Origin: a virus
Lineage: Duplodnaviria; Caudoviricetes
Virus record (IMG/VR): IMGVR_UViG_2884411467_000001
Location: 1-64,000 of that record
Direction: 5' to 3' (one strand)
Length of the DNA: 64,000 bases
Shown: positions 27,790 through 41,268 of the stretch, piece by piece
Position numbering within the stretch: the first letter of the stretch is position 1
How the letters are laid out: each line of letters begins with the position of its first letter
Made by a program: the position numbers and the translations under genes
The notes under the pieces: generated by a model
Seen by the model: only the letters and a program-made list of their open reading frames with translations
What the model was told of the DNA's origin: nothing
Databases searched by the model: none

Positions 27790-28467
27790 TTAGGCAGCTG
27801 CGCGTTCGAGCGCACGACTCGCAGCCGCCAAGCCATCAGCACAGTGATCCATCAGCCACGTGTACACGTAATGCCACGTCTTGCGGTAGGCATCCTCTTT
27901 GATGCCAAGCGCGCCTGCCCGGTCGACGTTCTTCGACGGGATGACGCCCTGCTCCTGGCACCGGCCACACGGCTTGGGGCCTGTTCTCGACGCGACCTCT
28001 TTCCTTCCCTCGCAATCGGGGCACTGCCGTGGCGAAAGGATCTCCGCCAGCACCGCCGGGGCAAGACGCGCATATGCAGGATTCGGCAGCCGGATCTCGT
28101 TCTGCACCTCGTCAACGCTCGGCCAGCGATTCTCGTGCGCTGAGGCGTACATGCCCTGGGCCCGGCGCAACGCGAAGCGGTCGGAGCTGATGGCAATGGC
28201 CAGCGTCGCGTCCAGCATGGCGTTCTCCCGTCGGCGGTACTCGGCCATCAGCTCGGCGTTCATGGCATTGAGCGCGTGGTGCTGGAGCGACCAGCGACTG
28301 TCCGGCCACCAGTAGAGGCACAGCAGGTCTCGGCCGAGGCCACGCGGCACCATGCCCAGGGCGCCAGCGATATCCGACGATGTCAGCTCAGGTAGTCCGC
28401 CACTGCCGATATCGAATCGGACGTTCTTCGGGTGCAGGCGCGCCAGCAGATAGGCGGGGTGCGTCAT
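27790..28467 (-). CDS. Late antiterminator Q-like protein
   Basis: ELTSSDIAGALGMV N-terminus and CPDCEG...CGRCQEQG zinc motif; immediately upstream of the lysis/late operon. Confidence 0.75.
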   Translation of the reverse strand: MTHPAYLLARLHPKNVRFDIGSGGLPELTSSDIAGALGMVPRGLGRDLLCLYWWPDSRWSLQHHALNAMNAELMAEYRRRENAMLDATLAIAISSDRFALRRAQGMYASAHENRWPSVDEVQNEIRLPNPAYARLAPAVLAEILSPRQCPDCEGRKEVASRTGPKPCGRCQEQGVIPSKNVDRAGALGIKEDAYRKTWHYVYTWLMDHCADGLAAASRALERAAA

Positions 28468-29111
28468 GCGGAGGCCTCACGCAGCTCAACCGTCACCGCA
28501 ATTGGCACCACGCGCAGCGGGCCGCGGTGAGGCTGCCTGACCTTCTGGGCCTTGAGCAGTCTTCCGGCCTCATCCTCGCTCGCCGTCACCTCGGCCAGGT
28601 TGATGCGGTCGTCCTGGTCCGCCAGCCCCCACAGTTCTGCGTGGCCCGCATTGAGCGTCGTCTGCATGTCGATCACCTTCAGTGCAATGAGTTGGTCTTG
28701 CAGCGCCAGCAGCGAGTCATCGCTGCCATAGCGCGTCCGGAACTTGCGGGCGTGGCGGGCATAGCTCGGCCCCAGCACGGCGGTGCACTGAGTGACGGTC
28801 ATCCCCTCGAGCGGCTCGCCGCGGTGATGCCAGCAACACAGGCCGATGCTGTAGCGGTGGCCGCGCCGGGTATGCCCATGGCGCCCTGTCTTGGTCAGGT
28901 GGTGCACCTCGGGCGTGGTGAGCCTTCCGCTCATCAGGCAGGCGAGGCAACCGATCATCCGAATGACCTCGAAGCGGAGGTCTTCGCCGACGGTCGGGGT
29001 TCCGGTGCTACGGCCCTGCCTGAGAGTGCTACCGCGCTTCTTCGCCTTGGGGGCGCGCTTGTCGCTCACCTGCTTGAGCGCTGTCCGGCTCAGCAATGCT
29101 GTCCGTTTCAT
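28464..29111 (-). CDS. Ref-family recombination enhancement HNH nuclease with C-terminal extension
   Basis: IGCLAC...EVHHL...GH..SIGLCCWHHRG...GPS.A motifs. Confidence 0.75.
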   Translation of the reverse strand: MKRTALLSRTALKQVSDKRAPKAKKRGSTLRQGRSTGTPTVGEDLRFEVIRMIGCLACLMSGRLTTPEVHHLTKTGRHGHTRRGHRYSIGLCCWHHRGEPLEGMTVTQCTAVLGPSYARHARKFRTRYGSDDSLLALQDQLIALKVIDMQTTLNAGHAELWGLADQDDRINLAEVTASEDEAGRLLKAQKVRQPHRGPLRVVPIAVTVELREASA

Positions 29112-32314: not shown

Positions 32315-32563
32315 ATGAACGAGGAGCAGCTGGAAAACGCCTTCTCCCATATGATGGGACGAGTCGTCGCGATGGAGTTTGCGCTGAAGGTACTCATCAG
32401 CACTCACCCCGATCCAGAGAAGTTAGCCGCCGTTTGGCGCGCACGTGTACCGGATTTGGTCGACGCCGGTAGCGAATCGCCGGAGACCGTGCACGACCCT
32501 GAGTTCCGCGAAGGACTGACGCGCCAGCTTCAACTGCTCGGTTCCCACCTGTCTCAGAAGTAG
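32315..32563 (+). CDS. Antisense moron, hypothetical
   Basis: AAGGGA RBS; 82-aa helical ORF opposite the early-right operon. Confidence 0.55.
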   Translation: MNEEQLENAFSHMMGRVVAMEFALKVLISTHPDPEKLAAVWRARVPDLVDAGSESPETVHDPEFREGLTRQLQLLGSHLSQK

Positions 32564-32971: not shown

Positions 32972-33161
32972 GCGAGCCAGCGCTACGCTGTTCGCCGAAT
33001 TCCTCCAGGATCTTCTGAACGCCCATGTTGATGAGCTCGCGCTTCAGCTCTCCCCACGTACGTCCGGCCAACACGGCAGCTTTCTTGCCGCGCCCGCGCT
33101 CGATGTCATTGAGAGCGACCTTCTCGTCTTGGCGCCGAAGCTGGGGATCGAGGTACGTCAT
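32961..33161 (-). CDS. CII-position regulator (ribbon-helix-helix-like)
   Basis: Follows cro; small basic protein (VALNDIERGRGKKAAVLAG). Confidence 0.55.
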   Translation of the reverse strand: MTYLDPQLRRQDEKVALNDIERGRGKKAAVLAGRTWGELKRELINMGVQKILEEFGEQRSAGSHEG

Positions 33162-33201
33162 AGTCAGGTCCTTTGAACTGCGAGTTGGTCTGTGGTCACG
33201 G

Positions 33202-33411
33202 TCAAGCGGCCTGATTGGGCTGCTTGTCGTTGTTGGCGGGCGGCTGGCGACCTACAAGCTGCAAGATGCGAAACCCGGTGTCGTAGCTCACGGAAAGAAC
33301 CCCGTTCCGGATGCGATTGATCGTCGAGCGGTTAACGCCAACGGCCTGGGCGATTTGATGCTCGTTCCAGTGGGCATCGATGAGGGCTTGCACAGCGGCT
33401 TTAGGAGTCAT
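33202..33411 (-). CDS. cro: Cro-like repressor
   Basis: HTH WNEHQIAQAVGVNRSTINRIRNG; divergent from cI. Confidence 0.8.
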   Translation of the reverse strand: MTPKAAVQALIDAHWNEHQIAQAVGVNRSTINRIRNGVLSVSYDTGFRILQLVGRQPPANNDKQPNQAA

Positions 33412-33419
33412 GGGCCATG

Positions 33420-33448
33420 AGCATTGTGCGTTTACGCACAAATGTCAA
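33420..33448 (-). promoter_or_regulatory. pR with OR-like operator
   Basis: Minus-strand TTGACA (33448-33443); palindrome TTGTGCGT-TT-ACGCACAA (33424-33441) in the spacer. Confidence 0.7.
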
Positions 33449-33497
33449 TGCTTTTGCGCAATCAACTGCGCAGACGCAATGTCCGAACATGGAGGGC

Positions 33498-34181
33498 ATG
33501 AGCTACCTCCAGCAGAACCTCAAATGGCTGTTTGAAACGAAGAAGACCAACGGCTACCAAGTGGCCCAGAAGACGGGCGTGGTCGCGAGCACGATCAATC
33601 GCATCGTGAATAGCAAGTTCAACGACGCGCGAGACAGCACGATTCGGCCAATCGCGGAACACTTCGGCCTTTCAGTCAATGACTTGAAGAATGTGGACCT
33701 GCAGGCCCAGGAGAAGCTTCTGGCCGTGGGTGAGGCCGTGGGTAAGCTGTCAGTGGACGCGTGCCTGATCACGGCGGTTCCCGAATTTTTCCCGGAGGAT
33801 GCTCCGCTCATGAACCTGCTGGCACCTCAGGACACGATCGCCCTATCGAAACCTGCGCTCGCGGCTATCACGACCGCCCCGCCATCTGATGTGCGTTTCG
33901 CGATTGCCCTGGACGATGCCATGCGCGGCGAGATTGAAAAAGGTGAGCTGGTTCTCATTGATACCCGTGTTCGGACCGTTACGGTCGACGGCATCTATGC
34001 TTTTACTTACTTCAAGCGACCGCACATTAAGCGAGGCGGTCACGAGGGAGCATCAGGTGGTTTGATGTTCACCGGAACCAATCCAAGGGTGAACAATATC
34101 CCCGTGGAGACCGAGGAAGAGATGAAAGGACTCAACATCATCGGCCAAGTCATTGCCTCCTTCACCAGGCGGCGTTACTGA
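33498..34181 (+). CDS. cI: CI-like repressor (HTH + S24-like domain, catalytic Ser replaced by Ala)
   Basis: GGAGG RBS; HTH NGYQVAQKTGVVASTINRIVN; S24-like DDAM...GELVLID...DGIYAF...IKR...IIGQVI. Confidence 0.85.
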   Translation: MSYLQQNLKWLFETKKTNGYQVAQKTGVVASTINRIVNSKFNDARDSTIRPIAEHFGLSVNDLKNVDLQAQEKLLAVGEAVGKLSVDACLITAVPEFFPEDAPLMNLLAPQDTIALSKPALAAITTAPPSDVRFAIALDDAMRGEIEKGELVLIDTRVRTVTVDGIYAFTYFKRPHIKRGGHEGASGGLMFTGTNPRVNNIPVETEEEMKGLNIIGQVIASFTRRRY

Positions 34182-34216
34182 GTCGATTGCCTGCGGCCTT
34201 CAGGGGGAGGGACAAG

Positions 34217-35875
34217 GTGGTATATCTAGCAAAGTGGGCCAGGAACTATTGGGTCCAAGGGACTGCCTTTGCCGTCCTGTATGGATTGACCTTCTACCAT
34301 TTGAAGGATGCCTCGCCAGCTACTCTTAACTTGCCTGTCGGCATGCGACTAGCGCTTTTCCTTGCCCTTCCACCGCGTTGGTGGCCTTGGCTTGTCGCCG
34401 GAGACATCGGAGCAAACGGGTACTGGAACATCACCGTTGCCGTGAAGCATCACTTTCCTGCCCTTTGGGCGGCGGTGGGTACGTCAATGCCGGTGCTCGC
34501 AGGCCTGATCCCTGCACACTTCAACAGGAAGTTTGGCGGCCCATACGATTTTGATAAGCCCCGCGACGCGATGCGCTTCCTTACCACCGCAGCCGGCAGC
34601 TCGCTCCTCACCGCGCTGGTATGCATCCTTGGCATTCTGGCCGCATCCATCGGCCGCCCCACGGGCATGACCTATGCCGACCCGGCCTTGGCGTCCCAGT
34701 TCACGATTTATCTCACTGGAGCATTAGCTTCCACTGTGCTCCTGCCGCCACTGGTGCATGTCGTTCGGGAGTTCTTTCCTAAAGGCAAGCGTGCTCTCAC
34801 GGACAAGGACCTGATCCTTATCGGCGGGTTTGCCGCCTATGTGCTGGTGGGAACGCTCTTCCTACAATCGGTCCCAATCGGCATGCTCACGCTTGTCCGA
34901 TGTGCTCTCTATGCGCCCCTGATCCTCATGACGCGCATCATGGGTTGGCGTGGCGCCACCATCATGGGGCTCGTTTGTGCAATAGCTCTTCAGGCGACGC
35001 AACGCGTTGACGTGGAAGGGCCATTTATCTCGGTGCAGGATATCGCCACTGCCTGCGCGGTCACCATGTTCATCTTCGGGTCCGTTATCTCCGAACAACG
35101 CAAGCAGGTGATAGCTGCCAAGGCGCAAAGCGAGCAGTCGCAGAGCGACGTGCGTCAGATGCGTGGCCTTGTTAAGCGCCACGCAACTCGTTCCGAAGCG
35201 CTCTTTCGGCACAGCGCGGGAATCATGGAAGATCTCGTGCGCGGCGCTCAGCAGGCGGAACGACAGATGCAGGACACGCCCGATCGTGGGGAGCGCGCCC
35301 TCATCCAGTGGGAGGCGATGAAGGGAATTCGCGAACGAATGCGCTCACTGAGTGAGATCTTCCATCCAGAATTGCTCGAGCAGGCAGGGCTCAGAGCAAC
35401 TATCTCGTCCGGGCCGCTGTACCAGATACTCAGCGCCTGCGGGATTGCGTTTGACGACGATCTACGTGCGCGTCCGGGCCTACTCTCGCAAGAAGTCCAA
35501 ATGTCGCTGTACCGCCTTTCTTACGAAGGGGCGTGCGTCATGCTTCGCGATAAGACACCGGAGAGGATGGTGGTGTCACTTCGGATCGGCAGAATTGCTA
35601 GGGGGCCGCGCTACGCGATCCTGCGCTTGAAAGGCGTTGTTTCGAGCCCTGAGGGATGGCGTGCCCCGACCAGTGTTGTGACCACAGGTTTCAGCCTGGA
35701 TGGTATGGGCTTGGTGGCGGAAAGCTTCCAGGGTCGCGTCAAATACAGCAGGGACGCGCACCGCATGACCATCCTCTTGTTCGACGGTGCAACTCAGGCG
35801 ATCACTGAGACCGTAAAGGCCCTACCGTTCTCAATGAACCAAGGCCACCCCTCGGTTACCGACGCCGCGGGCTAA
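34217..35875 (+). CDS. MASE1-domain membrane sensor with degenerate HisKA_3/HATPase-like tail
   Basis: GGGGAGG RBS, GTG start; LPVGMRLALFL.LPPRWWPWLVAGD and about 9 TMs; HPELLEQAGL and LYRLSYEG resemble UhpB-type kinase segments. Confidence 0.7.
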   Translation: MVYLAKWARNYWVQGTAFAVLYGLTFYHLKDASPATLNLPVGMRLALFLALPPRWWPWLVAGDIGANGYWNITVAVKHHFPALWAAVGTSMPVLAGLIPAHFNRKFGGPYDFDKPRDAMRFLTTAAGSSLLTALVCILGILAASIGRPTGMTYADPALASQFTIYLTGALASTVLLPPLVHVVREFFPKGKRALTDKDLILIGGFAAYVLVGTLFLQSVPIGMLTLVRCALYAPLILMTRIMGWRGATIMGLVCAIALQATQRVDVEGPFISVQDIATACAVTMFIFGSVISEQRKQVIAAKAQSEQSQSDVRQMRGLVKRHATRSEALFRHSAGIMEDLVRGAQQAERQMQDTPDRGERALIQWEAMKGIRERMRSLSEIFHPELLEQAGLRATISSGPLYQILSACGIAFDDDLRARPGLLSQEVQMSLYRLSYEGACVMLRDKTPERMVVSLRIGRIARGPRYAILRLKGVVSSPEGWRAPTSVVTTGFSLDGMGLVAESFQGRVKYSRDAHRMTILLFDGATQAITETVKALPFSMNQGHPSVTDAAG

Positions 35876-35888
35876 ACCCGCGGCGTCG
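35860..35888. terminator. 12-bp hairpin at the convergent gene junction
   Basis: CGACGCCGCGGG-CTAAA-CCCGCGGCGTCG; the MASE1 stop codon lies in the loop. Confidence 0.6.
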
Positions 35889-35897
35889 TGGGACGCT

Positions 35898-36356
35898 TTA
35901 ATTGATCTTCGTGCAGTCGGTGACACTGGTGCAGTCCGCCGCCGCGACAGGTCTCGCGCTGGGCGATGCCACAAGCCCTCTTGTTGGCGATGCAGTAACC
36001 GTGGTGCCGCTGTCTGAGTACACGGTCACGCCGTCAGCCGGTGCCGAATCAGTGACCGCCTGCAATTGACCGGCGCCCAGCGGCAGCGCGAGCGAACTCG
36101 TCCCATCAGGCGACGCCGCCACGCCGCCGCGCACAGTTCCGTTCACGTCGTTCACCTGGATGAATTTCAGGCCATTGACGGCGAACACGTAGACATGGAA
36201 CTGCGGATTCGCGCTTACGTCCTGGGCGTTTGGCCACGATTGGCCCAAGCCGCTGGCCGGCGCAGTCTGGGCTACTGCAACGCCCAAACCACCCATCAGC
36301 AAGCACAGCCCCATCGCCAAGGCCACAACGGCCCACTTTAATCTGCTCCGGTCCAT
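35898..36356 (-). CDS. Secreted protein of unknown function (GLGQSWPNAQDVS type)
   Basis: Sec signal peptide ending VAVA-Q; FHVYVF..NG..FIQVND.NG.VRG beta-rich core; C-terminal DCTSVTDCTKIN. Confidence 0.7.
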   Translation of the reverse strand: MDRSRLKWAVVALAMGLCLLMGGLGVAVAQTAPASGLGQSWPNAQDVSANPQFHVYVFAVNGLKFIQVNDVNGTVRGGVAASPDGTSSLALPLGAGQLQAVTDSAPADGVTVYSDSGTTVTASPTRGLVASPSARPVAAADCTSVTDCTKIN

Positions 36357-36474
36357 CCCCTGCTCTCCTTCAGTCTGTTGGCCTTTCGGCGATTCTTGCG
36401 CCGCCAACTCAAGCACTGAACCTGATCAAAAACATGAACGCCCACTGAATGCCGCGCACATTTCAGTGCGGATG

Positions 36475-36528
36475 TGTGCGTTTTCGCACGCACCCCTATT
36501 GCAAATAGTATGTGCGTTTACGCACAAT
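36475..36528 (+). promoter_or_regulatory. OL/pL-like operators and promoter
   Basis: TGTGCGTTTACGCACAA (36511-36527) identical to the OR site; variant TGTGCGTTTTCGCACG (36475-36490); TTGCAA at 36499. Confidence 0.7.
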
Positions 36529-36556
36529 TGATTGCACTTCACGAGGGGCCTATGCG

Positions 36557-36796
36557 ATGAGCGCCGTCTACCCAGCCGAACTATTCGTCCTGCGCCGTCA
36601 GGTCCGAAACGTCTCACTCGCTCCAGCCAGCGTCACCAGGACAGCCGAACGCATCGCCCTTCGCGCCCGCGCCATCGGCATCTCCACCTTCCGTGCCCGC
36701 GAGGGCGCCCTGAACTACCTAGCCTCCCTGTCGTATCTGGGCGGTATGTACGTCCTCGGCGCCAGCGGCACTGACAAGCCGAAGGGTACGGCATGA
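36557..36796 (+). CDS. Hypothetical, first gene of the pL operon
   Basis: GAGGGG RBS; ATGA-coupled to the next gene. Confidence 0.5.
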   Translation: MSAVYPAELFVLRRQVRNVSLAPASVTRTAERIALRARAIGISTFRAREGALNYLASLSYLGGMYVLGASGTDKPKGTA

Positions 36797-38911: not shown

Positions 38912-39475
38912 GTGACTGCACCGACGATTATCTTCCAGAAGGCCTTCATCAAAATCAACAAGGCCCCTGACATCAATGGCATTGCCAGCCTGCTGGAGCC
39001 GCTGACGCTGTCATCTATCACCAGCCAGGTGGATGGCTTTCTCAACCCAGATCCGAATCGCTTCGAGCTCGATGCATCCAGCGGAATCATCTACGACCCG
39101 CTCACTGGGTTGATGTGGGGTGACGAGACGGACGAGCTGACGCCGGACGAAGCTATGGAAGCATGCAAGGCATCGCGCCAGGGTGGCCATTCCGACTGGA
39201 CGAAAGCGGGCCTACGCCCGTGGCTCACCATTGTGGATTACACGCGCAACAACCCCGTGTTGCCACCGCCGTTCAAGACCCATGGCGACTCCGTTTGGAC
39301 GGCTGACGAAACTCCTTGGAGCAAGAAGGAGAAGCGTACGGGTTCTTCCCGCTCCTTCTTCTACGTCGGCATGTGCTACGGCAACGTCAACTACTACCTC
39401 GCCGGCTACCGGCGGCGTGCGCGGCCGGTGCGGCGCGCGGCGCCGGCCAGTCAGTGCTTGGTCATTGGCCAGTAA
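38912..39475 (+). CDS. DGR target protein, DUF1566 (Lcl / CLec-fold) domain
   Basis: IYDPLTGLMW...A...C.....GGHSDW...IVDY...VWT...; VR at the C-terminus; no signal peptide or TM. Confidence 0.85.
   Translation: MTAPTIIFQKAFIKINKAPDINGIASLLEPLTLSSITSQVDGFLNPDPNRFELDASSGIIYDPLTGLMWGDETDELTPDEAMEACKASRQGGHSDWTKAGLRPWLTIVDYTRNNPVLPPPFKTHGDSVWTADETPWSKKEKRTGSSRSFFYVGMCYGNVNYYLAGYRRRARPVRRAAPASQCLVIGQ
39339..39456 (+). repeat. DGR variable repeat (VR) with IMH-like GC-rich 3' end
   Basis: 118-nt match to 39974-40091 (offset 635) with 14 mismatches. Confidence 0.95.
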
Positions 39476-39484
39476 CAGCCTGAC

Positions 39485-39919
39485 ATGACCTTCCACCTTC
39501 CTCCCGCCGTGCGGCTCGCAGAAACCCTTGCTCGCGACATCGAGCAAGCGGTCTCGAAGTTTCACCGCGCGCACCGCTACACGTTCGGCGCTGATCTTCG
39601 CGCCGATATGTGGGCCGTGCTCACGACCGCGAACCGTGCGGCGAGGAAGCCTTCGGAGCGGGCCGCGTTGCTCACCAGGCTGGTTGATCAGGTGGATGAC
39701 CTCAAGCAGCGCCTGCGCCTCGGCCAGTCGCTGCGTCAGTTCAACAGCTTCGGTCAGTTCGAAGCGCTCATGCGCTCGGCGATAAACCTCGGCCAGCAGA
39801 TAGGCGGCTGGCACCGTCAGCACCACCCCAAAGGCCAGGATGGCCGGTCGCACGCGGCCGGACAGCGTGCCATGACACTGAGTACCCGTGACACCTCGAT
39901 GGTTGAGGTCAATCAATGA
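39485..39919 (+). CDS. avd: Accessory variability determinant (Avd-like four-helix bundle)
   Basis: F.RAHRY.FG.DLR...LGQQIGGW motif; lies between VR and TR. Confidence 0.85.
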   Translation: MTFHLPPAVRLAETLARDIEQAVSKFHRAHRYTFGADLRADMWAVLTTANRAARKPSERAALLTRLVDQVDDLKQRLRLGQSLRQFNSFGQFEALMRSAINLGQQIGGWHRQHHPKGQDGRSHAAGQRAMTLSTRDTSMVEVNQ

Positions 39920-41268
39920 CGAAGCTTCGCTACCCACAGGGATGTGCAGCCAGGTCGCAAGTGCACGGGGACGCGGGTTCTTCCCGCTCCTTCTTCTACG
40001 TCAACATGAACAACGGCAACGTCAACAACAACAACGCCAACAACCGGCTGCGTGCGCGGCCGGTGCGGCGCGCGGCGCCGGCCAGTGAGTGTCAGGGTGG
40101 GGTTACTGTTCGCCAATTGCACGATGCGATGTGCGCGGCTCGACGCCGGAAGAAACCCAGTGCGAACCAGCTCGCGTTCGAACTGGCCTGGATGGATCGC
40201 CTCATCGCCATTGAGGCGGACATCAATGCTGGCCGATGGTCTCCAGCACCCGCAACATGCTTCGTCGCAACGCGCCCGAAGGCCCGTGAGATCCATGCGC
40301 CTGATTTCGGCGACCGCGTGGTTCACCACTGGCTCGTGCCTCAGCTGGAAGCCATCTACGAGCCGACGTTCATCCACGACAGCTATGCCAATCGAAAGCG
40401 CAAAGGCTCTCACGCGGCCGTTCTTCGGCTCAGGCAGTTCGTTCGCCAGACCGTCAGCGGTGAAGGCGGCGGCTGGTACCTGCAGCTCGACGTGCATAAC
40501 TTTTTCAACAGCATCCACCGACCCACCCTGTGGCTGATGTTGAAGGACCGCCTCACGCGCGCCAACCTCGATGCTGCAGCTTTGCGCGTGGTTCATGCAC
40601 TCCTTCGTCATCCTGTTGAGCGCCAAGGCGTGCACCACCGAGCCACGGCCGCACAGCGCGCCATGGTTCCGGCTCACAAGCGGTTGGAGAATGCGGCGCC
40701 TGGATGCGGTTTACCAATCGGCAACCTCTCGTCTCAGTTCTTCGCCAATGTCTATCTAGACGCGCTCGATCAGTTCGTGAAGCACACGCTGAAGGCGAGG
40801 CGCTATGCCCGATATGTCGATGACTTCGTGCTAGTCCACCGTGATCGCGCCGTCCTGGAACAGTGGCAGCACGACATCGAGACTTTTCTTGGCCGGGAAC
40901 TGGGCCTGAAGCTGAAGGCTGACATTCGGCTACGCCCTCTGTCAGCCGGCATCGATTTCCTGGGTTATGTCGTCTATCCAACCCACACGCGAGTTCGGGC
41001 TCGTGTGCTCCAGCACATGACGCAGAACCTCGCTGCTTGGGCCCAAGCACACAGCGTGAGGCACGGGTTCGCTGCGACACCCGCCGATATCCGCTCTGCC
41101 GGTTCGATTCTCGCGAGCTTTGACGGCCATCTGCGCCACGCGAATGCGGCGCGTGTGCGGCTCCAAATCTTGAGCCGCTTTCCCTGGGCCAGTCGAATTC
41201 CGACGAAGGCCTCCTTTGCCCCAGCGCTAGAGGGAACGACCGTTCTCCTCCGGCATTCACACTCCTAA
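39916..41268 (+). CDS. DGR reverse transcriptase (ORF includes TR in frame)
   Basis: REIHAPDFGDRVVHH, YLQLDVHNFFNSI, GLPIGNLSSQFFANVYL, RYVDDFV and GIDFLGY motifs. Confidence 0.95.
   Translation: MTKLRYPQGCAARSQVHGDAGSSRSFFYVNMNNGNVNNNNANNRLRARPVRRAAPASECQGGVTVRQLHDAMCAARRRKKPSANQLAFELAWMDRLIAIEADINAGRWSPAPATCFVATRPKAREIHAPDFGDRVVHHWLVPQLEAIYEPTFIHDSYANRKRKGSHAAVLRLRQFVRQTVSGEGGGWYLQLDVHNFFNSIHRPTLWLMLKDRLTRANLDAAALRVVHALLRHPVERQGVHHRATAAQRAMVPAHKRLENAAPGCGLPIGNLSSQFFANVYLDALDQFVKHTLKARRYARYVDDFVLVHRDRAVLEQWQHDIETFLGRELGLKLKADIRLRPLSAGIDFLGYVVYPTHTRVRARVLQHMTQNLAAWAQAHSVRHGFAATPADIRSAGSILASFDGHLRHANAARVRLQILSRFPWASRIPTKASFAPALEGTTVLLRHSHS
39974..40091 (+). repeat. DGR template repeat (TR)
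   Basis: Ten AAC codons; 12 of the 14 differences from VR are at TR adenines. Confidence 0.95.

Follow-up and report, generated by a model that had tools for sequence, protein, structure and literature searches.

Lambda CI, P22 C2 and the 434 repressor combine an HTH DNA-binding domain with a C-domain of the S24 fold. The nucleophile Ser of this fold is S149 in lambda CI and S119 in LexA, the general-base Lys is K192 and K156, respectively, and substitution of the nucleophile by Ala (lambda CI S149A, LexA S119A) blocks RecA-stimulated autocleavage. In lambda, the repressor gene lies next to a divergent cro, with the operators OR and OL, and with accessory genes (rexAB) between cI and OL. Master repressors that do without RecA*-stimulated self-cleavage include those of the Gifsy (GfoR/GtgR), N15 (CB) and 186 (CI-Tum) systems (PMC3121763, PMC10432266), and antirepressor-driven induction of such non-cleavable repressors is documented, the Gifsy repressors being an example (PMC3121763). 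Among 271 cI proteins, 61 were counted as autoproteolytic versus 210 as non-proteolytic, with non-proteolytic repressors without a peptidase domain described in the same study (PMC10432266). Database labels such as "LexA family" or "S24 peptidase" are nevertheless usually taken to imply DNA-damage induction.

The window analyzed here, 64,000 nucleotides from an 81-kb IMG/VR provirus record, encodes a repressor (the window CI) that shares the two-domain architecture and fold of lambda CI, P22 C2 and the 434 repressor, and its locus likewise has a divergent cro, OR and OL operators and accessory genes between cI and OL. Its natural substitution is the one that abolishes cleavage in the lambda CI S149A and LexA S119A laboratory mutants, with the Lys present. 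Unlike lambda CI, P22 C2 and the 434 repressor, it carries this Ala nucleophile in the wild, has no Ala-Gly and has no Gly across the cleavage-site region, and over the C-domain it shares only about 33% identity with a lambdoid cI. It would resemble the Gifsy, N15 and 186 repressors in being a master repressor without RecA*-stimulated self-cleavage, but, unlike the prophages of that type, its own showed no known antirepressor family in the 81-kb record and no LexA box above chance; unlike the non-proteolytic repressors of PMC10432266, it retains the full S24 fold and the Lys, without the Ser and the scissile bond. We computed the sequence features and fold of the protein, the operator sequences, the completeness of the prophage and the recurring loss of Ser in the clade, and conclude that the window CI is probably the immunity (master) repressor, naturally unable to autocleave, of an apparently intact prophage for which the classical RecA* route would be closed.

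The repressor gene and its protein

The features of the repressor gene are as follows.

33498..34181, plus strand: cI-type repressor gene, 227 aa (P0001); ORF translation, PHROG_4
33498..33698, plus strand: N-terminal HTH DNA-binding domain, residues 1–67; Pfam HTH_26 and HTH_3 (weak), profile match to the 434 repressor
33759..33848, plus strand: equivalent of the cleavage-site region, residues 88–117, strand-loop-strand; AF2 secondary structure, VIA ranges, MAFFT
33918..33920, plus strand: GCC codon of Ala141, at the S24 nucleophile position; BLASTP and MAFFT alignments
34029..34031, plus strand: AAG codon of Lys178, at the general-base position, kept; BLASTP and MAFFT alignments

P0001 falls into the CI-repressor families phrog_4 (E 9e-16) and phrog_6201 (1.4e-11) of PHROGs. 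Its Peptidase_S24 (PF00717) score of 21.8 bits (E 1.6e-4) is below the gathering cut-off of 23.3 and the HTH_26 match in Pfam is likewise sub-threshold; a six-frame Pfam search returned S24 at 23 bits for the same region, and PF00717 matches are precomputed for relatives of the protein. Single-sequence phmmer of P0001 against the PDB gave weak HTH matches only, and a family profile was required. This profile, made from 40 relatives in the alignment also used for the AlphaFold (AF2) model, matched the 434 repressor N-domain (3e-12), UmuD/UmuD' (2e-9) and LexA (1e-3) among solved structures. The AF2 model has a mean pLDDT of 91, and its C-domain was matched by Foldseek, at a probability of 1.0, to lambda repressor/CI, to LexA C-domains and to UmuD'. 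VIA-align superposed residues 90–227 of the model onto E. coli LexA 75–201 (Z 12.8) and residues 85–222 onto a lambda CI fragment containing the cleavage-site region (Z 10.9). The 186 CI C-domain was matched too (Z 11.1), and the N-domain reached Z values of about 10–11.6 against SinR, 434 Cro and P22 c2 N-domains. The C-domain keeps the LexA/lambda-CI beta-fold, most likely for dimerization and cooperative binding.

In the public gene call the repressor is a 254-aa protein (P0002) starting at 33417, 27 codons before 33498. We prefer the start at 33498 because the N-termini of all homologues align at this Met and because direct reading finds GGAGGG 5 nt upstream of it; the public call is probably 27 codons too long, and would start within the cro-cI operator region. 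The exact P0001 sequence is carried by one assembly only.

Active site and cleavage-site region

The motif around residue 141 reads DDAMRGEIEKGE. In a BLASTP alignment with a lambdoid cI (E 5e-11), Ala141 falls beneath the Ser of GDSM and Lys178 beneath the VKR Lys, and MAFFT with lambda cI and E. coli LexA returns the same register, with Ala141 in the Ser column and Lys178 (HIKRG) aligned with the VKR/FKK Lys. The alignments with lambda cI, lambdoid cI and LexA therefore agree with the sequence-only reading of this locus, which had put an Ala (GCC) in the S24 nucleophile position and found the general-base Lys (HIKR) retained. Ser occupies the nucleophile column in all 11 of the closest relatives (27–47% identity, from Dyella/Rhodanobacteraceae genomes and proviruses), where the motif reads DDS[ML]xG[EQ]I[ED]. 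In the four relative loci that were read its codon is TCC or TCA, one transversion from GCC, which fits the single change from TCC proposed earlier. The same reading had considered that another Ser might stand at the active site; the C-terminal part has its Ser residues at 117, 130, 186 and 221, none of them near it, and no Ser, Thr or Cys is adjacent to residue 141.

A canonical scissile bond is expected about 35–38 residues upstream of the Ser. P0001 has no Ala-Gly or Cys-Gly dipeptide anywhere in its sequence and, on direct reading, no Gly between residues 83 and 143, so that the linker that had been described as lacking an evident Ala-Gly site holds no X-Gly bond at all, whatever the alignment, and would offer no canonical scissile bond even with Ser present. 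Where the equivalent of that bond lies is ambiguous, the linker alignment being uncertain: MAFFT lets lambda A111-G112 and LexA A84-G85 fall on Ala102-Pro103, motif reading (RVAAGEP versus RI.AATE.P) points to Val94-Pro95, and the ungapped structural offset gives about 99/100. As read from the residues, none of 94/95, 99/100 and 102/103 is a canonically cleavable position, and Pro follows each candidate P1 residue. Ser/Lys-bearing relatives (P0003, P0006–P0011, L003, L004) are themselves mostly without Ala-Gly at the lambda/LexA scissile position, the aligned dipeptides being AA, AD, AS, VA, LM and others, with AG in P0004 and P0005 only; to judge from these residues, cleavage in the whole clade may use a non-canonical site or may not occur. 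From the Ser-to-Ala change together with the missing Ala-Gly we infer, by analogy with LexA S119A and lambda CI S149A, that classical RecA*-stimulated autocleavage of the window CI is very unlikely, and the earlier claim that this prophage is not induced by classical SOS autoproteolysis is upheld on the same analogy. PDB titles among the Foldseek matches include Ser-to-Ala LexA used to hold LexA in its uncleaved form.

The loss of Ser recurs among the relatives. Ser is present in 60 of 84 aligned C-domains of remote relatives, the others having A, T, D, G, V, N or further residues at this position, with the Lys often replaced by Arg. A weakly resolved C-domain tree of 92 columns places the window CI in a clade of 25 representatives with the motif M.GEIEKGD (SH-aLRT 92), 13 of which are without Ser, and in this clade the loss is enriched (13/25 versus 8/46 outside; Fisher p 0.006, not corrected for phylogeny). 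Within the clade the window CI nests in a 15-member, mostly Ser/Lys subclade (SH-aLRT 90), where Ala at the nucleophile position is unique to the window sequence; its loss of Ser is therefore independent of that in the all-dead subclades. In members of one of these, L005 1227–2036, L013 5001–5810 and L015 5001–5750, the Ser/Lys positions read A/R, V/R and A/R, and these CIs match the window CI in the C-domain only, their N-terminal regions being different, which indicates domain shuffling in the CI linker. Recombination of the window C-domain from an all-dead subclade was considered and rejected, as this domain is closest to Ser-bearing relatives (63% to P0003) and nests among them. On the suggestion that Ala might be fixed in the clade the alignments thus give a divided answer: all 11 close relatives have Ser, while 13 of the 25 clade representatives are without it. 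Ser-less CI repressors of the S24 fold are common, and the window CI would be a further natural non-proteolytic CI.

At least 10 of the 11 relatives agree in 52 columns; the window CI follows them at 43 and differs at nine (S141A, D150E, S200N, R90L, P107L, V116L, W120A and two in the HTH). Residues 71–125, the strand-loop-strand of the cleavage region, contain only five conserved columns, and four of them are changed (R90L, P107L, V116L, W120A) versus 5/47 elsewhere (Fisher p 0.002, for small numbers and regions chosen post hoc). The cleavage apparatus as a whole has drifted, with the fold core and the DNA-binding domain kept. These four changes, taken with S141A and D150E, argue for an old and real loss and not for an error, and on this comparison neither a sequencing error nor a recent mutation is a likely source of Ala141. 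Lys178 remains conserved, as does most of the neighborhood of the active site; the loss could then be recent, or the pocket could have been put to another use.

Prophage, operators and the cassette downstream of cI

The neighborhood of the repressor gene comprises the following features.

33202..33411, minus strand: divergent cro-like HTH gene, 69 aa; Pfam HTH_23 and HTH_3, PHROG transcriptional regulator/repressor families
33424..33441, no strand: putative OR-type operator, a perfect 18-bp palindrome, TTGTGCGT-TT-ACGCACAA, in the cro-cI spacer
34217..35875, plus strand: MASE1 membrane protein, DesK-type (HisKA_3) pseudo-kinase, 552 aa; Pfam MASE1 1.6e-12
35898..36356, minus strand: convergent small-protein gene, 152 aa; gene call, accompanies the pseudo-kinase
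36510..36527, no strand: putative OL-type operator, a one-mismatch copy of the OR palindrome just ahead of the plus-strand early operon, which starts at 36557

Homologues of the cro-like gene lie upstream of cI in L003, L004, L009 and L016. The cro-cI spacer measures 86 bp and contains, besides the palindrome, a weaker inverted repeat at 33446–33481; on the OL side a 14/16 variant of the palindrome was found by eye at 36475–36490. The 18-bp palindrome has two matches versus 0.25 expected, a number reached in one of 100 shuffles. This OR/OL layout is that of lambda, and the OL-like palindromes at 36475–36527 place the pseudo-kinase and its small partner, referred to below as the sensor cassette, between OR and OL. 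The 434-like HTH of the window CI would most likely bind these 18-bp palindromes at OR (cro-cI) and at OL (early operon). A sigma-70 scan of 33150–36700 found no promoter, such scans being uninformative in GC-rich DNA.

On its right arm the prophage has O-like, P-like, VRR-NUC, Ref-like, Q-like, endolysin and terminase genes. The structural set consists of portal, protease, decoration protein, capsid, sheath, tape measure and baseplate, and the left arm holds a DGR, a methyltransferase and an integrase. CheckV gives a completeness of 100% for the 81-kb record. The prophage is apparently intact, lambda-organized and contractile-tailed, with a Rhodanobacteraceae (Dyella-like) host. Domestication, which the sequence-only reading had offered as one of two outcomes, finds no support, since the modules for regulation, replication, lysis, packaging, head, tail and integration are all complete, with CheckV in agreement; a complete prophage with the palindrome at both OR and OL argues instead for a working, naturally non-autocleavable master repressor. 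A search for att repeats between the two prophage flanks (exact 13-mers) returned none, no tRNA was found in the window, and megablast of 24 kb against GenBank phages gave no match.

The MASE1 gene begins 35 nt downstream of cI with no terminator predicted between them, and the cassette is probably co-transcribed with cI. Residues 305–552 of its product (248 aa; AF2 pLDDT 80) fold like the DHp and ATP-binding core of DesK, the top Foldseek match (E 1.6e-7); DesK is seen by fold search only, a profile of the MASE1 protein having no match among PDB sequences, and a word-index search started from the pseudo-kinase C-domain found nothing but the query. As read from alignments, the protein is without the conserved phospho-acceptor His, the N-box Asn and the G1 box, and is therefore taken as a pseudo-kinase. 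The 152-aa small protein is putatively exported, to judge by eye from its N-terminus, and homologues of roughly 150–176 aa directly follow the pseudo-kinase gene in L003–L005, L008, L009 and L013–L016. The order cI, pseudo-kinase, convergent small-protein gene holds in 11 of 11 clade loci with readable context (window, L003, L004, L005, L008, L009, L013, L014, L015, L016 and the P0129 contig), although these loci vary in CI N-domain, cro type and replication module; the cassette is missing from the control, an enteric lambdoid locus. In the order listed, the nucleophile residues of the 11 repressors are A, S, S, A, S, S, V, D, A, T and T, so that seven are without Ser. Because the cassette is found beside repressors with and without Ser, linkage by itself does not mark the sensor as the trigger: the cassette could be an alternative input to CI or a linked Rex-like exclusion system in the cI-OL slot, and the data are equally compatible with both. 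We found no paper linking MASE1 to prophage repressors. Non-proteolytic cI proteins are already known (PMC10432266, PMC3121763); what is added here is the tie of a pseudo-kinase cassette, whose synteny and fold are confirmed, to a repressor clade with a decaying dyad, and this linkage across the clade is the part worth an experiment.

Routes to induction

With Ala141 at the nucleophile position, no X-Gly bond in the stretch that would lie across the active site and Pro after each candidate P1, autoproteolysis of the window CI would be impossible and RecA* could not inactivate it by the classical route. Induction would then require that the repressor be inactivated without proteolysis (through antirepression or sequestration), cut by a foreign protease or lost stochastically. 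Antirepressors of non-cleavable repressors are usually LexA-controlled and encoded in the same or a co-resident prophage. The early operons contain more than 15 small ORFs without family match, among them the following.

32315–32563, plus strand: 82-aa ORF without family match, opposed to the early-right operon, between the O-like gene and two small ORFs in the cII position

This ORF is possibly a moron or a regulator. Induction by an antirepressor, as in Gifsy, N15, 186 and P22, where a small ORF of the prophage or of a co-resident element would bind CI, possibly under SOS control, is a route documented for non-cleavable repressors (PMC3121763, PMC10432266), for which these ORFs supply candidates. 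Searches for known types speak against it: neither ANT, Bro-N, pRha and AntA domains nor an ImmA-type M78 protease were found in the 81-kb record, about 50 ORFs scanned included no PHROG antirepressor, and LexA boxes of the Xanthomonad-type pattern and of the E. coli type (CTGT-N8-ACAG) gave chance-level matches only. We regard an antirepressor as possible, though not probable. A signal-controlled switch, in which the MASE1 pseudo-kinase and its small partner inactivate the S24-like C-domain of the clade, for instance by sequestering CI at the membrane, is unlikely by comparison. Here an extracytoplasmic cue, and not RecA*, would decide induction, which would explain the repeated decay of the catalytic dyad. 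The switch draws on the position of the cassette between OR and OL, probably in one transcript with cI, on a gene order that persists in all 11 loci despite exchanged CI N-domains, cro types and replication modules and is missing from the enteric control, on the missing Ser in seven of these loci and its enrichment in the clade (13/25 versus 8/46, p 0.006, again not corrected for phylogeny), and on a literature that makes no MASE1-prophage repressor link. Mere adjacency, however, would also hold the C-domain coding part and the cassette together, rexAB in the same slot of lambda is an exclusion system and no CI regulator, and the cassette stands beside Ser-bearing relatives too. That the C-domain of the clade has turned from a RecA*-triggered autoprotease into a target of the pseudo-kinase and a putatively exported partner is a doubtful proposition; if true, the lysis-lysogeny switch would read an envelope or extracellular cue in place of DNA damage, and the repeated independent decay of Ser and Lys, including Ser141Ala, would be the footprint of this changed input.

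Two further explanations concern the substitution itself. In a locked-in or decaying prophage the Ser-to-Ala change would be an ind- type mutation and the first step of domestication, in line with an Ala that is unique within its Ser-bearing subclade and a sequence known from one assembly. This is very unlikely for a prophage whose functional modules are all intact at a CheckV completeness of 100%, whose repressor still matches 43 of 52 family-conserved columns, and in whose clade half of the members lack the Ser in otherwise normal phage contexts. That CI is cleaved normally, either because the G at 33918 is miscalled or because a still-active protease uses another nucleophile, is hardly credible: GCC does differ from the TCC of relatives by a single T-to-G change, and Lys178 is intact, but the Gly-free stretch from 83 to 143 would leave no canonical scissile bond even with Ser, four of five conserved cleavage-region columns have changed as well, and no Ser, Thr or Cys adjoins residue 141. 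A naturally non-autocleavable master repressor is the reading that we prefer.

In the window CI the S24 fold persists while its chemistry would be gone, and the nucleophile is lost in about half of the clade representatives; anyone predicting SOS-inducibility should therefore look at the Ser, the Lys and the scissile bond, a check already applied in PMC10432266. With its strict linkage to this repressor clade, the cassette is a concrete candidate for feeding a signal other than SOS into a lambda-like switch in soil Gammaproteobacteria.

Two other genes or gene groups of the early operons are recorded here.

38912–41268, plus strand: diversity-generating retroelement in the early-left operon; Lcl_C/DUF1566-type target, Avd (phrog_3206), reverse transcriptase (phrog_1423)
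28464–29111, minus strand: Ref-like RecA-dependent nuclease (Pfam RecA_dep_nuc; PHROG Ref-like) in the early-right operon, beside the Q-like antiterminator

The Ref-like nuclease family also occurs on the contig of the relative P0129.
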